Made by a program: the position numbers and the translations under genes. The notes under the pieces are model-generated. The model was given only the letters and a program-made list of their open reading frames with translations. It was not told where the DNA came from and searched no databases. Positions 1 to 57,300 of a stretch of 64,000 nt of DNA are shown here, piece after piece. Origin of the DNA: Deltaproteobacteria bacterium. Its GTDB lineage: Bacteria; Myxococcota_A; Polyangia; Polyangiales; Houyiibacteriaceae. Position 1 is the stretch's first letter. The number at the start of each line of letters is the position of its first letter. Where the stretch lies: the NCBI GenBank assembly GCA_034670305.1, contig JAXMNT010000012.1, positions 91,534-155,533 of the forward strand, written 5' to 3'.

Positions 1-1
1 C

Positions 2-100
2 TCGATGCGCGAAGACGGACTCGAGCTCGACAAGTTCGTGCTCGCGTTGGACGAGGACTTCGTGCCCGAAGGCGACGGCCCGCCGGAGACCCGGCCCTAG
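2..100 (+). CDS. 3' end of a CDS entering from the left edge; C-terminal MREDG..DK..L..D...P.G.GP motif of carbohydrate-associated beta-sandwich domains
   Basis: Frame 2 reads SMREDGLELDKFVLALDEDFVPEGDGPPETRP, TAG at 98-100; GC3-rich codons. Confidence 0.6.
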   Translation, partial: SMREDGLELDKFVLALDEDFVPEGDGPPETRP

Positions 101-208
101 TACCGGGGGGCGGCTCCGCGCCCGTCCCCGAAGGGTTGGTTTTCCACCCACCGAACCCACCGCCGGAAAAGCAGAAAGCTTCCACAGCCCGCGGTGGTAT
201 GAGAACCC

Positions 209-1069
209 ATGCGGTTGGCGGGTGACAAGCAGGTGCGCGCGTGGAGCTCAGGGCAGGTCAAAAAGCCCGAGACGTTGAACTACCGGACCTTCAAACCGGA
301 GAAGGACGGACTCTTCTGCGTGGAGATCTTCGGTTCGTTTCCGCCCCTGGAGCGCGGCGGGCCCGACACGCAGATCGGACACATCGAACTCTGCCAGCCA
401 GTGGTGCATCCGTGGTTCCGAACGAAGCTCGCACAGCTGCTCGGCGTGTCGGTGATCGAGGTGAACGCGCTGTGCCTGAGCGAGCGGGCGATGGTGATGG
501 ACCCGGGGCCGTCGTCGCTGCGCAGGGGACAGATCGTGACGATCGCGGAGCGGGAGAACCTGCTCGGCGAATGGGGTGGCGATGTGACGCTGGCCACTGG
601 TACCGCCGAACTGCGCGCGGTGCTTGGGTCCGCCGCGGACGAGGTGTGTTTGAACGCGGTGCCCGTGTGCCCGCCGTCGATCCGGCCCATGCAGTACCTC
701 GAAGGCAAGCTGATCAAGACCCACGGCTTGTGCGATCTGTACCGACGCATGGTGAACCGCGCGAACCGGCTGCGGCGGCTCGTGGAACTGAACGCGCCCG
801 AGATCATTCTCGTCAACGAAGCGCGCATGCAGCAGGAAGCGTTCGATGCGTTGATCGAGAACGGTGAGGGACCGAAGGTCATCACGGGCACCGACAAGGA
901 ACGACTCCCTTCGTTGCTCGATGCGTTCCGGGAGGTCCATGGCCCGAACGCCGACCCACTCGCCGGCGACTACCCGGACACGCCGCTCATCCGCTCGCTC
1001 GCGTTGACGCGAGGCAGCGCGGCCGCAAGTTCAGCCCCGGCCAACCCCGACGACTTCGACTTCGACTGA
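209..1069 (+). CDS. Stand-alone RNA polymerase beta-prime N-terminal (clamp, Rpb1 domain 1-like) protein; not a full rpoC
   Basis: WSSGQVKKPETLNYRTFKPEKDGLFC..IFG, GHIEL..PVVH.WF, PVCPPSIRP and DLYRRMVNRANRLRRL..LNAPEIIL.NE.RM.QEAFDAL..NG match RpoC motifs; ends before switch 2 and NADFDGD; no rpoB or ribosomal neighbours. Confidence 0.9.
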   Translation: MRLAGDKQVRAWSSGQVKKPETLNYRTFKPEKDGLFCVEIFGSFPPLERGGPDTQIGHIELCQPVVHPWFRTKLAQLLGVSVIEVNALCLSERAMVMDPGPSSLRRGQIVTIAERENLLGEWGGDVTLATGTAELRAVLGSAADEVCLNAVPVCPPSIRPMQYLEGKLIKTHGLCDLYRRMVNRANRLRRLVELNAPEIILVNEARMQQEAFDALIENGEGPKVITGTDKERLPSLLDAFREVHGPNADPLAGDYPDTPLIRSLALTRGSAAASSAPANPDDFDFD

Positions 1070-1238
1070 TCAGGGGCGCTCGGAGGTCGGCTCGAAGCGC
1101 CAGCGCCGGAGCACGAGCCGCTCGGTCTGCCATCGGGGGGCGAGGTTCACCGGATCCAGATACCACGACGCGCTCCAGACCAGAGCCACGGCGCTTGGGC
1201 GCAGAGCGGGCGCACAGGGCAGGTGGTATAGAAGCGGG

Positions 1239-2987
1239 ATGGACCGACGCGATCTTCGCTGGCTCTGCGCCTTGGTGCTCTCGATGGTCTCGCTGGGATG
1301 CGGTGGCCCAGGATCGACGACCGACGCTGGCCGAGAAGACGCGGGCGGCGTCGATGCGCCAGGCGCCGACGCACCCACCCAAGACGCACCCGGCGTGGAT
1401 GCGCCCACGGCCAGCGGCCGGTTCGTCTTGGTCGACACCGCGATGGACGAACCGCAGTGGCGCGAGACCTACCCGACGCCGTGTTACCTCGGCGACGCGC
1501 TGCAATGCGAAGCGCACGAGACCGGCGGCGGCATGGCGATCCGCGACGTGGACGGCGACGGAGACCTCGACGTGTTCTTGACCCACTTCGAAGCGGCGGA
1601 CGTGCTCTACCTGAACGACGGCGGCTTCGTCTTTCGCGCCACCACCATCGCCGCCCACGCCGAGGCGCTCTACACCAATGGCGCGGCGTTCGCGGACATC
1701 GACGAAGACGGCGACGCGGACCTGCTGGTGGGCACCGTGGGCGAAGACCGGTTTCGGCTCCTCATCGGAGACGGAGCGGGCAACTTCACCGAAGAGGCGG
1801 TCGCGCGTGGCGTCGCGCAGACCGCCGCCGACGAAGACGACTTTCACTCGACGATGAGCCACTGCTTCGCGGACTACGACCTCGATGGCTTTCTGGATCT
1901 CGCCACGAGCGAATGGCGCATCGAACGCGCGACTGGCACCTCGCGCAACGCGCTCCTTCGCAACCGAGGCACCGACATGCCCGGCTTCTTCACCAACGAA
2001 ACCGAAGCGCTCGGCATCGACATGATCGACGTGCCCGGCGCGACCGCCGGCGCGTGGGGGTTCACGCCGATCCTCGCAGACATGGACGGCGACGACCGAC
2101 CGGATCTCTTCTTCGCGTCGGACTTCGAATCGTCCCGGGTGTTCTGGAACGACGGCGCGACGTTCTCGGACGGCACCGACGTGGCCATGGTCGGCACCGA
2201 AGAGAACGGCATGGGCGGCGCGATCGGCGACTACGACGGCGACGGAGACTTCGACTACTTCGTCACCTCGATCGACAACCCCGACTGCGCCGGTTGCGAG
2301 GTCTGGGGCAAGACCGGCAACCGCCTCTACCGCAACGATGGCGGGCGCCGCTTCACCGACGTCACCGACGCCGCCGGCGTGCGCGGTGCGGGCTGGGCGT
2401 GGGGCACCCGCTTCTTCGACTACGATCTGGACGGCGACCTCGATCTCATCGCGACCAACGGCATGCGCAAGCCGCCCGCCACCACCAACTTCGCCACCGA
2501 CCCGACCCGCCTGTGGCGCAACGAAGGCGACGGCACGTTCACCGAAGTCGCCGGCGCAATGGGTCTCGACCACGTCGGCGTCGGCCGCGGGGTCGCCACC
2601 TTCGACGCGGACGGCGACGGAGATCTGGACGTGCTGATCACCCACAACCTCGACGCGCCGGTGCTCTACCGCAACGACGTCGGGGTGCCCGAAGACGGCG
2701 TCGGCCGCGCGTGGCTCGAAGTGCAGCCCCAGGGCAGCACCAGCAACCGCGACGGCATGGGCGCGATCGTGCGCGTGGTCGCCACCGACGGCGCCGCCCC
2801 GATGGTGCGGCTGAGCGGCAACGGCTGCGGCTTTCTCGCCCACACCCCCGGCACCCCCCACTTCGGACTCGGCGACCTCGAGTCCGTGGCGCGCATCGAA
2901 GTCTTCTTCCCCGCGAGCGGACGCATGGTGGTCATGACCGACGTCGCCACCCGTCAGCGTCTGGTCGTCGTCGAACCCGACGCCTGA
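1239..2987 (+). CDS. CRTAC1/ASPIC-UnbV family FG-GAP-repeat lipoprotein
   Basis: Lipobox LGC, many DxDGDGDLD repeats, GWAWG motif, C-terminal SNRDGMGA.V...HFGLG. Confidence 0.85.
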   Translation: MDRRDLRWLCALVLSMVSLGCGGPGSTTDAGREDAGGVDAPGADAPTQDAPGVDAPTASGRFVLVDTAMDEPQWRETYPTPCYLGDALQCEAHETGGGMAIRDVDGDGDLDVFLTHFEAADVLYLNDGGFVFRATTIAAHAEALYTNGAAFADIDEDGDADLLVGTVGEDRFRLLIGDGAGNFTEEAVARGVAQTAADEDDFHSTMSHCFADYDLDGFLDLATSEWRIERATGTSRNALLRNRGTDMPGFFTNETEALGIDMIDVPGATAGAWGFTPILADMDGDDRPDLFFASDFESSRVFWNDGATFSDGTDVAMVGTEENGMGGAIGDYDGDGDFDYFVTSIDNPDCAGCEVWGKTGNRLYRNDGGRRFTDVTDAAGVRGAGWAWGTRFFDYDLDGDLDLIATNGMRKPPATTNFATDPTRLWRNEGDGTFTEVAGAMGLDHVGVGRGVATFDADGDGDLDVLITHNLDAPVLYRNDVGVPEDGVGRAWLEVQPQGSTSNRDGMGAIVRVVATDGAAPMVRLSGNGCGFLAHTPGTPHFGLGDLESVARIEVFFPASGRMVVMTDVATRQRLVVVEPDA

Positions 2988-54341: not shown

Positions 54342-57300
54342 CTACGGGAAGTCGGGGATGGCGGCGGGCGCCACCACGCTCGAGGTGGTGCCCTGTCCCG
54401 CCTGCCCTCCGCTGTTGCCGCCCCAGCACCACATCTCTGGGGTGCCGCCCATGTCGCGCAGCGCGCAGACATGGTTGGTGCCGCTCGCGATGTGAAGCAC
54501 GTTGTCGATGGGTGAACCGCCCGCATCCATGACTCGGATCGGGACCGTCGAACTCCCTTGCCCCGGTCCGAGCGCCTCGGCCGGCGCCACCCCCCAACAC
54601 CACGCCTCGCGCGCGCCGTCCGCGTGCCGGATGACGCATGCGACGCCTTGAACGACTCCGTTCGGGTCCATCGGCGAGATGTGACCGCCCACCGCATCGT
54701 CAATGCCCGCCACCACCGCGGGAAGCGGGTCGTCGCCACTCACGCTGCCGGAGCCTGTCTGAGTGCCCCAGCAATAGACGCGGCGCGACGCGGTGCGCAC
54801 GCAGGTCCGCGAACCCCCGCCCGGCATCAGCTCGATCACGTCCGCGGGCAAACCCGGAACCCGCCCGGGCGCATCGCGCGAGCCGCCCGCGAAGCCGTCG
54901 CCCAGCTCGCCCTCGGTCTGGTTGCCGAAGCAGACGACGAAGCTCCCGTCGACGGGGTTCGAGCGCAGGATGCAGGTGTGATCGTTGCCAGCGTGCACCC
55001 GCACTGCGTCGTCGATGTCTGGGATTCGAACCGGATTGGGCGAGTCGCCGCCCGGGCCATCGGGTCCCAGCTGACCGCGCGCGTCTCTTCCCCAGCAGTA
55101 CACCCGCTGGACGGGGGTGCCGCCCGCGTCTTCACGAACGACGGCACAGGCGTGCCTCGTGCCCATCTCCGCCTGCACCACATTCGTGAGTCCAGAGATG
55201 TAGTTGCCGGCGGGCACGCCGACCGGCCCCAAGATCCCGCACTGTGCGTCTTCGTTCCAGCCCCACGCGAACGCGCGCCCGTCTGCGGTGACGCCGATGC
55301 CACCGGCCCACCCCGCGCTCACGTCGACGAGGCGTGGTGCGACACCGAGGGTCGGTGACAGCTCCGGAACCAACGTCCCGGCGCCATGGGCTCCCGCGGA
55401 TCCTTGTTGGGCGCCCCAGACCGCGAGGTGGCCGCCCGCGCGCCGCGCGTACGTGAAGCCGGCGCCGGCGACCAGCTGCACGATGGGCGCGTCGTCGCAA
55501 CCGACGCCGGTCGCACCACACGTATCGCCGGCGGTGCACTCCGTGAAACACGCGCCGCAGTTGAGCGGATCGGTCGCGGTGGAGGTCTCGCAACCGTTGG
55601 TGACGTCGTCGTCGCAGTCGCCTTGTCCTCCGTCGCAGGTGAGTACGCAGGCGCCGCTCATGCACACGCCACCCGTGCCGGGGAGCGCGTCGCAAAACGC
55701 GTCGGTCCCTTCGTCGAGGGTGCCGTCGCAGTCTTCGTCGGACAGGTCGCAGGTCTCCACCCCGCCCGGAAACGAGCGCGCGTCGTCGTCGTCGCAGTCG
55801 GTGTCGTTGGACACGTAGCCGGCGGGCGGCGCGCAGCCGACGAGATCCGCGAGCGCGCCTCCGAAGCCGTCCCCGTCGGTGTCTTCGTACCAGGGGCGGT
55901 CGCTCGTTTCGTCGACCGTTCCGTCGCAGTCGCTGTCCGCGCCGTTGCATCGTTCGTCCGCGCCCGGAAAGATCATCGGGTCCGCGTCGTCGCAGTCGAG
56001 CGGTCGGTCGCTCGTGCCAGGGGGCGGGCGGCACGCGAGCACCGACTCGGTGCCGACGCCCCAGCCGTCCCCATCGCTGTCCACGTAGTAGGCGATCCGG
56101 GGCGCGCTCTCGTCGAGCACGTCGTCGCAGTCCGCGTCGATGCCGTCACAGCCGTCCGGCACACCGGGGTGAACCGAAGCGTCGAGGTCGTTGCAATCGC
56201 CCGCGCGTCCAGCGCGTCCAGCCGGCCGTGCGACCGCTTCGATCGAAGGTTCGTCGTCGGTTCCGTAGCCGTCGCCGTCGCGGTCGATCCACCACGGCAC
56301 GGTGCCGGGCGCTTCGTCGATGGTGCCGTCGCAATCGTTGTCGACCGCGTCCATCTGTTCGGGCGCGCCTGGGCGCACGTCGATGTCGGCGTCGTCGCAG
56401 TCCCCGCCGCCGCAGCGCATGTCGGCCACTCCGTCGCCGTCGTCGTCTTCGGTGTCTGGTCCGCCGTCGATGAAGAAGTTCGCGCGGCCATCGCAGTCGT
56501 CGTCGACGCCGTTGCAGCGTTCGTCGGCGAGCGGGTTGATGCGGGCGTCTTCGTCGTTGCAGTCACCGAGCCGGAGCACGTGGCCAGCCGGCGGGATGCA
56601 GCTCACCATCGTGCCGGATTCGGCGCTGCCGAACCCGTCGGCGTCTGCGTCGCGGTACCAGGTCGTCGACGCCGGTGACTCGTCGGTGATGCCGTCGCAG
56701 TCGTTGTCGATCTCGTCGCACACCTCGACCTGCCCTCCGTGCCGCGCACCGTTGGTGTCGTCGCAGTCGTCGCCCACGGTGGAGAAGCGAGGCAGGCCGG
56801 GGCACGAGGCGGTTGGCGCGCCAGGGTCGCCATGCAGATCCGCGTCTTCGTCGCGGAACCCTTCCACGAGCACGCCTTCGTCGACCAAGCCGTCGCAGTC
56901 GTTGTCGAACCCGTCGCAGACTTCGGGCAACCCGGGCCGGGCATCGCGGCGCATGTCGTTGCAGTCGGTGCCGCAGAACGAGGTGCCACCCTCCGGGTCC
57001 AGGTTGCAGCACGCCGCGTCGAACGCGCCGTCGCCATCGCGGTCGACGTCGCCGGTCGTGCGCGGGTCACAGTCTTCGTCGTGCCCGTCGGGGTCGCAGA
57101 CCTCCGCGTTGGCTGGGAAGCGGTTCGGGTCGGTGTCGTCGCAGTCGGCACCACCGCACCCGAGCACGACCGCGCCGTCGCCGTCGGCGTCGCCACCCGC
57201 GACGCCGCATTCCACCATGCACGTCTCGGCCGCCTCGTCGCAGAGCATGCCTTCCTCACAGGGCGGAGCGGACGCCACGCAGCCGCTCGGGTCGGCGCCT

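Follow-up and report, generated by a model that had tools for sequence, protein, structure and literature searches.

Docking of region 2 of sigma factors onto the clamp helices of the RNA polymerase (RNAP) β' subunit is the established first contact, and it raises the affinity of sigma for single-stranded DNA (ssDNA) of the -10 element (PMC12000874); according to the same source, engineered N-terminal fragments of β' bind sigma region 2 via their clamp helices and raise -10 ssDNA binding. A separate gene for the N-terminal part of β' is also represented by the γ subunit (RpoC1) of cyanobacteria and plastids, which has about 620 amino acids (aa), includes the active site, exists as the sole copy and pairs with RpoC2. 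Anti-sigma factors occupy the core-binding surface of sigma with a dedicated domain. Here, we analyzed a 64,000-nucleotide stretch of DNA (hereafter, the window) from a Deltaproteobacteria bacterium (assembly GCA_034670305.1), and found that a gene of 286 aa at window positions 209–1069 of the + strand, stop codon included, encodes the β' half of the RNAP clamp as a conserved protein that stands alone and is catalytically inert, and that probably regulates transcription rather than performing it.

The 286-aa protein shares with the clamp region of RpoC a colinear order over β' residues ~24–344, in which the N-terminal block, the lid position and the clamp helices can be aligned, and a two-helix coiled coil in its structural model. 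However, it is much shorter than RpoC (286 versus about 1400 aa), is acidic rather than basic, and possesses a C-terminal motif and an acidic tail of its own. It covers nearly the same piece as the engineered fragments but differs from them in being a natural, separately evolving gene that lacks the first ~20 residues, the zinc-binding stretch and the basic charge, and that carries the acidic tail. The NCBIfam models of γ matched it weakly (134.8 and 131.5 bits, against cut-offs of 1117 and 975.9), and unlike γ, it occurs alongside a full rpoC, with no complementary half detected. The proposed effect would resemble that of anti-sigma factors, namely occupation of the core-binding surface of sigma, but no sequence relation to these factors was found by Pfam, and the protein would use the polymerase's own docking site. 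A description of stand-alone or catalytically dead β' clamp paralogues was not found in the literature covered, subscription papers lying outside that coverage; an earlier examination of the same DNA, made without database searches (the sequence-only reading), had likewise known of no such system.

The gene starts with ATG and is intact. Its N-terminus is set by an in-frame TGA at 200–202, two codons upstream, within a stop-to-stop frame of 203–1069, and the fractions of guanine plus cytosine (GC) at codon positions 1, 2 and 3 are 0.66, 0.45 and 0.85, the same pattern as in the flanking genes. The earlier observation of an intact open reading frame (ORF) with its own start and stop is confirmed. 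RNA_pol_Rpb1_1 (PF04997) was the sole Pfam family detected, in two stretches (99.6 bits, above the gathering threshold of 39.7; E = 2.9e-28), and a PHROGs search of the protein returned rpoC-like profiles only. In the PDB, 77 distinct sequences matched at E ≤ 0.01 (best E = 4.4e-51), and the best 60 of these 77 were all labelled as RNA polymerase large subunits, nearly all of them β'. The similarity consists of three ordered, colinear matches, in which residues 3–44 correspond to β' 24–65, residues 55–141 to 101–191, and residues 139–253 to 230–344 (residues 140–253 to β' 231–344 on the E. coli chain 10ma_J). Absent from the protein are β' 66–100, β' ~192–229 and everything from switch 2 on. 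The sequence-only reading had recognized the colinearity, which holds to β' ~344 in these three pieces, but had overlooked the two internal deletions, as well as the acidic C-terminal tail and a larger family of dead flap/clamp/alpha-subunit C-terminal domain (alpha-CTD) fusions. The RpoC equivalog model TIGR02386 of NCBIfam gave 179 bits against a cut-off of 963.5, and the protein is thus not classified as RpoC. Since it ends at the equivalent of β' ~344, the active-site domain with NADFDGD and the GKRVDYSGRS motif of switch 2 are both absent, as expected from the earlier description of a catalytically dead, clamp-only module that stops before switch 2.

For comparison, we defined a short family consisting of the 286-aa protein, P0002, P0003, P0140 (the protein of genome G030) and P0142. 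Structural elements are referred to as zipper, lid, clamp helices, rudder and flap, with coordinates taken from the alignments; all positions are on the + strand of the window. Residues 3–44 (215–340) form a strongly conserved N-terminal clamp-core or 'zipper' block, in which 28 of 42 positions are identical to the RpoC of the same genome. The following linker of 10 residues (45–54; 341–370) stands in place of the zinc-binding stretch with four cysteines (β' ~66–100); it is free of cysteine in this protein, P0002 and P0003, whereas the cysteine stretch is still present in the relatives from G030 and P0142. Residues 55–139 (371–625) correspond to β' 101–191, with a predicted local distance difference test (pLDDT) score of 85–94 in the AlphaFold2 (AF2) model, and are followed by the deletion of β' ~192–229, which all paralogues share in some form. 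Residues 140–172 (626–724) correspond to β' 231–263, the lid region, where the short family has RPM, and [TS]H for ATSD; just before the lid, neither the short nor the long forms that were aligned contain the RpoC segment ATSQAKRTKLTKRLKVVESFKDSG. Residues 173–217 (725–859) correspond to β' 264–308, the clamp helices, which contain invariant columns, are identical to the genome's own RpoC at 31 of 45 positions and have retained the tip ELNAPEII unchanged. As the sequence-only reading had noted, this coiled coil is among the best conserved blocks. Residues 218–253 (860–967; β' 309–344) comprise the rudder, with 10 of 19 positions identical and two arginines lost (NGEGPK versus NGRRGK in RpoC), and then a degenerate start of switch 2, where similarity fades to 3 of 17 over β' 328–344. 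The remaining elements are ~30% identical to RpoC. The C-terminal part contains a short-family motif, PDTPLIRSLAL (residues 256–266; 974–1006), which reads PDAPLVSALAL in P0142 and is degenerate in G030, and, after a low-complexity linker, an acidic-aromatic tail, DDFDFD (residues 281–286; 1049–1066).

The AF2 model of the protein had a mean pLDDT of 77.8 and a predicted template modelling (pTM) score of 0.78. Residues 55–270 were modelled confidently, and the long helices at 173–193 and 198–217 formed a coiled coil; pLDDT values were below 50 at residues 20–53 and 271–286. The net charge of the protein is -6 (isoelectric point, pI, 5.4) and that of its relatives -7 to -15, compared with +20 (pI 9.6) for the aligned segment of RpoC. 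The acidic charge and the loss of the rudder arginines argue against a role that needs contacts with nucleic acid in the cleft, and for a role in protein binding.

Relatives with the same boundaries, which the sequence-only reading had proposed to look for, were found. A word-indexed search of proteins gave 4240 candidates, 2249 of them with E ≤ 0.001, and the top 120 of these 2249 consisted of the protein itself, P0002, P0003 and 117 others of 336–501 aa that are 33–38% identical and carry source names of partial β' subunits. P0002 (291 aa, 87% identical) and P0003 (287 aa, 86%) have the same start, MRLAGD, and in-frame insertions and deletions confined to the linker. The more distant P0142 is 37% identical to the 286-aa protein (1–267 aligned with 1–296) and 47% identical to P0140. 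These five intact proteins, which span 37–91% identity, have a common start (M-R-x-A) and end just after the rudder. The acidic tail is found in four of the five (DDFDFD, DDLDFD in P0002, DDLEFD in P0003 and EEEFD in the fourth), and P0142 ends earlier. A profile of four short proteins was compared with 1.84 billion representative sequences, yielding 6205 matches at E ≤ 0.001 (531 at E ≤ 1e-30); short proteins matched in a single stretch that covered most or all of the profile, among the best 150 of the 6205, were P0003 (287 aa), P0140 (306 aa), P0142 (297 aa) and P0271 (301 aa), and further short forms may rank lower. Features derived relative to RpoC are common to the group of the 286-aa protein, P0002 and P0003 (the window group), G030 and P0142, namely RPM for RPL, [TS]H in the lid, an HG motif and the lack of the two rudder arginines, and PDxPLxxxLAL is common to the window group and P0142. 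Acidic-aromatic tails of this kind were observed in 4 of 4466 coding-like ORFs of the genome, two of which are its two clamp paralogues, the other two being unrelated.

In a tree of 38 rows, from which 12 rows were left out (G012_short213, P0271 and G218_long, which had the longest branches, and nine near-duplicate RpoC sequences), the five short proteins formed one clade (support 99/98). This clade was sister to long paralogues of Myxococcota (100/96; joint clade 94/94) and apart from the RpoC clade of the order (100/94). The stem branch of the short form was long in two trees (2.28 and 1.18 substitutions per site). A recent duplication of the lineage's own rpoC as the origin of the window group was rejected by the approximately unbiased (AU) test when these three proteins were held with the RpoC of the order (p-AU 0.002), and holding the whole short clade there gave a borderline result (p-AU 0.049, LG+G4); because the groups were named after the first tree and long branches are involved, both tests are suggestive only.

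Two smaller or weaker relatives were also observed. In G012:C1 (L030:6083-6724, +), a mini form of 213 aa contains only the N-terminal block, zinc stretch, lid and clamp helices, and has a very long branch. In G030:C102 (L195:5133-6752, +), a protein of 539 aa shows a weak match to the β' N-terminus and zinc stretch (PF04997, 34 bits, below the cut-off) along with ~300 residues without a Pfam family.

The genome (7.93 Mb, 105 contigs, 96% complete) contains three homologues of the β' N-terminus according to hidden Markov model (HMM) searches: rpoC on contig C47, a paralogue in a 991-aa frame on C50, and the gene in the window. The full rpoC, a frame of 1395 aa that carries NADFDGD, lies on a contig other than that of the window gene, and the two coexist as had been supposed. 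We also considered that the gene might be one half of a split rpoC; a phmmer search with RpoC residues 401–1395 against all six-frame ORFs found only rpoC and a weak match to the long paralogue, and no remainder was detected. With respect to an assembly chimera, which had been raised at the outset, a separately assembled Logan contig of 21,188 nucleotides (nt) covers window positions 1–1400 with 0 differences and spans the locus, but its run is flagged as the probable source sample and it is not independent. In an unrelated study (run X6), a contig of 207 nt aligned to 325–519 with differences at 25 of 195 bases, and resembles an orthologue. Its 12 listed differences fall in 10 codons, of which 6 are silent and 4 replacing (T72A, K73Q, I83V and S91Y), in line with purifying selection, in a sample too small to count as a test. 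The listed differences in this contig are absent from ~358–420 and all 12 lie in 421–480. Most of the other read-derived contigs on the gene (X5, X6) represent rpoC of other organisms over the conserved block 255–334. Searches for related loci in genome contigs and in metagenome contigs returned 80 loci each, all of which were ordinary rpoC (32–38% identity), one of the search patterns being conserved in rpoC. Two further candidates for short paralogues, G376:C37 and G374:C4 (L193, L194), were rejected as true rpoC genes in which frameshifts or TGA leave frames of 889 and 539 aa; the breaks probably arose in assembly, and such genes are easily taken for paralogues.

We examined the surface on which sigma docks. 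The equivalents of E. coli R275, E295 and A302, reported as retained by the sequence-only reading, are indeed present (R184, E204 and A211) and are invariant in four short proteins (alignment A1). The 286-aa protein keeps the equivalents of R275, R278, R281, E295, R297, Q300, E301 and A302, and all five members of the short clade keep the same set except that E301 is T in P0142. The gene is real and conserved, has lost the catalytic parts and has kept the sigma-docking helices.

A second paralogue in the same genome belongs to the long forms that are sister to the short clade. This protein, P0121 (G000:C50, L027:7051-9978, -; G000 denotes the window genome), has 975 aa as translated and consists of segments equivalent to β ~834–939, which includes EEKLLRAIFGE (the flap tip), β 1239–1337 and β' 2–487, followed by an alpha-CTD and the tail HDFDDLDDID; at the active-site position it has LAAGES where RpoC has NADFDGD. 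Compared with the window gene, it is perhaps the more remarkable of the two. Similar long proteins occur in G004, G012 and G218, and the representative library contains others, including some whose lineages are clearly different (e.g. P0148). When the C-terminal 196 residues of P0121 were used as the query, 17 proteins were obtained, some of which lack clamp helices altogether, and the only name that NCBI gives to one relative is 'RNA polymerase subunit alpha C-terminal domain-containing protein'. Long forms such as G000:C50, P0275 and P0269 resemble the short ones in lacking the β' stretch before the lid, and some of them have a similar acidic tail. In contrast, the flap-like segment, β C-terminus, dead active site and alpha-CTD belong to the long forms, and none of them is present in the 286-aa protein.

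Several variants of these mosaics were noted. P0124–P0133 are long flap/clamp/alpha-CTD proteins from which the clamp-helix coiled coil has been deleted, and hence not every member of the wider family can act via clamp helices. In G218:C108 (L192:4261-6807, -), a paralogue of 848 aa combines a β C-terminus and a β' N-terminus without an alpha-CTD and, like the 286-aa protein, has lost the zinc stretch, which may represent an independent loss. P0134 (752 aa) and P0138 (1080 aa) each contain two alpha-CTD matches and a match to Sigma70 region 4, and constitute further mosaics of transcription modules. P0141, an rpoC-like protein of 828 aa in which a stretch of ~270 residues occurs twice, looks like the product of a misassembled contig.

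The surroundings of the window gene contain no other RNAP genes, as the sequence-only reading had stated. Upstream lie genes for an outer-membrane factor, a histidine kinase, HlyD, AcrB and a lipoprotein with a GH115_C-like domain, the last of which stops at window position 100; the resistance-nodulation-division (RND) efflux set, with its outer-membrane factor on the minus strand, and the lipoprotein gene together occupy L026:2799-12097, upstream of the window start. Downstream is a gene for an FG-GAP/ASPIC lipoprotein. The neighbor of the short gene in G030 encodes a Ser/Thr kinase, and the two loci have no context in common. The hexamer TATGAG, which had been proposed as a -10-like element, is literally present at 198–203 (+) and overlaps the in-frame TGA at 200–202, yet a consensus scan of positions 1–1400 returned 0 sigma-70-type promoters, and it is not called as a promoter; the same scan returned 0 terminators. 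No Rfam family was detected in positions 1–1500 at E ≤ 0.1, nor was any notable repeat in the first 1.4–1.5 kb.

On the basis of these features, we propose that the 286-aa gene arose within an old family of paralogues built from dead RNAP modules. Of the original protein, only the N-terminal clamp-core block, the lid, the clamp helices and a rudder stump would be left, and the gene product carries a disordered linker with the acidic ...DFD tail. Because the sigma-docking helices are kept, dead sister fusions keep other docking modules, and the genome has 41 Sigma70_r2 matches compared with one NusG-family match, we favor a competitor for sigma binding. In this tentative model, which we prefer while holding it at clearly less than even confidence, a near-native clamp-helix coiled coil would be presented off the core to region 2 of sigma-70-family proteins, and the protein would compete with core RNAP for sigma. 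It might thus act as a sigma sink or an anti-sigma-like buffer, perhaps directed at some of the 41 sigma-family genes, and its acidic tail might serve as a partner-binding or self-masking peptide. Both the identity of the partner as sigma and sequestration as the effect are what we infer from these features.

Several observations weigh against this model. The chief one that it leaves unexplained is the conservation of the N-terminal block (residues 3–44), which is not the main sigma site; residues 20–53 of the model have pLDDT values below 50. The corresponding block of RNAP packs on the C-terminus of β, and a β-like partner is therefore also possible. The clamp helices are, moreover, also a structural core and the docking site of NusG, such that their conservation does not single out sigma. 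The equivalents of R293 and N266, both positions that affect sigma binding in E. coli, are V and C in the 286-aa protein. The genomic context of the short genes examined points to no connection with sigma or anti-sigma genes. The short form is also rare. With a threshold of E ≤ 1e-29 throughout, it was found in 2 of 88 genomes of the family in the Genome Taxonomy Database (GTDB) (G000 and G030). In the order (401 genomes, including 4 unpublished ones, G194, G313, G387 and G396, that enter only the denominator), G000, G030 and G218 were matched among the 150 matches listed, with 181 further ones beyond; the G218 match is the 848-aa long form, giving 2 of 401. In a phylum-wide sample of 401 genomes from 255 genera, only G000 itself was matched (1 of 401).

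A broader version of the proposal is possible, which we rate as less likely than not. Surfaces of RNAP on which sigma and promoters dock (clamp helices, flap tip and alpha-CTD) may have been reused in some Myxococcota as free, dead proteins, of which the long forms would be 'pseudo-holoenzyme' scaffolds and the 286-aa protein the minimal member and a new structural class of sigma regulator made from core RNAP itself, with the DFD tail as a control or partner peptide.

The conserved N-terminal block raises an alternative that we regard as unlikely, namely that the protein is a β-binding or assembly factor, whose N-terminal block docks on the C-terminal clamp segment of β in free β or alpha2-β, and which holds, chaperones or blocks assembly. 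The identity of residues 3–44 to RpoC (28/42) despite pLDDT values below 50 at 20–53 would suit a segment whose folding depends on a partner, and the long paralogues fuse β 1239–1337 right before the same block, suggesting one unit of which the short form lacks the other half. However, no separate gene resembling the β C-terminus lies beside the short genes examined, and in assembled RNAP the docking site is already taken by β'. Such a factor would also leave the equal conservation of the clamp helices unexplained, and the deletion of the zinc stretch may by itself account for the low pLDDT.

It is rather improbable that the protein acts as a positive sigma cofactor, binding sigma region 2 off the core and switching on -10 ssDNA binding, so that the pair marks, occludes or pre-melts promoters as a natural equivalent of sigma with the engineered fragment. 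Fragments of the β' N-terminus with boundaries nearly those of the 286-aa protein were reportedly studied with sigma-70 in vitro by Young et al. (2001, Cell; 2004, Science), and an alpha-CTD, a module that binds DNA or activators, is found in the long sister forms. The increase in the affinity of sigma for -10 ssDNA upon clamp-helix binding (PMC12000874) is likewise in its favor. In contrast, members of the short family are acidic and possess neither the rudder arginines nor an alpha-CTD, the zinc stretch has been lost in this lineage, and no promoter-like target was evident. The sequence-only reading had suggested a minimal melting partner, an idea that is weakened if the protein needs DNA contacts of its own (net charge -6 to -15, compared with +20).

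The clamp-helix tip is the site of NusG and RfaH, and the tip ELNAPEII is identical to that of the genome's own RpoC, as would be the case if the protein bound the NGN domain of NusG and titrated it. We nevertheless give this decoy little credence, because the genome has a single NusG-family match and no specialized paralogue, the titration of a housekeeping factor looks costly, and full NusG binding also needs elements of β.

Even less probable is that the protein serves as a decoy or guard against foreign clamp-binding molecules, such as phage inhibitors of RNAP, toxins, or antibiotics acting on the clamp or switch region. The patchy, rare distribution and the fast-evolving stem branch fit a conflict gene, and myxobacteria make RNAP inhibitors. 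However, PADLOC found 0 defence families for both the window protein and the G030 protein, the neighbors are of efflux, lipoprotein or housekeeping type, and the protein lacks the switch region, where drugs usually bind. Judged by ORF size only, self-resistance to an antibiotic is disfavored too, as no coding-like ORF longer than 876 aa lies downstream before window position 54342. Finally, the idea that the gene is an assembly artefact or what is left, without function, of an rpoC duplication, to which rarity and the very long stem branch might point, is hardly credible and already largely refuted by five intact homologues with the same start, three of them with the same tail kept across linker indels, by clade-specific conserved substitutions, by the coding GC pattern, by the 21,188-nt contig without differences over 1–1400 (probably from the source sample) and by the rejection of the window group with RpoC (p-AU 0.002).

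The results indicate that a known RNAP domain lives as an independent, inactive protein family that is apparently regulatory, and the 286-aa protein itself is small and probably soluble. If sigma binding is true, it would represent a new form of control over sigma availability, by mimicry of core RNAP rather than by a dedicated anti-sigma domain, and a natural counterpart of the minimal β' fragments with which promoter melting has been dissected. Taken with the long dead fusions that the same genomes contain, the protein would point to a layer of transcription control, so far unstudied, in bacteria with dozens of sigma factors.

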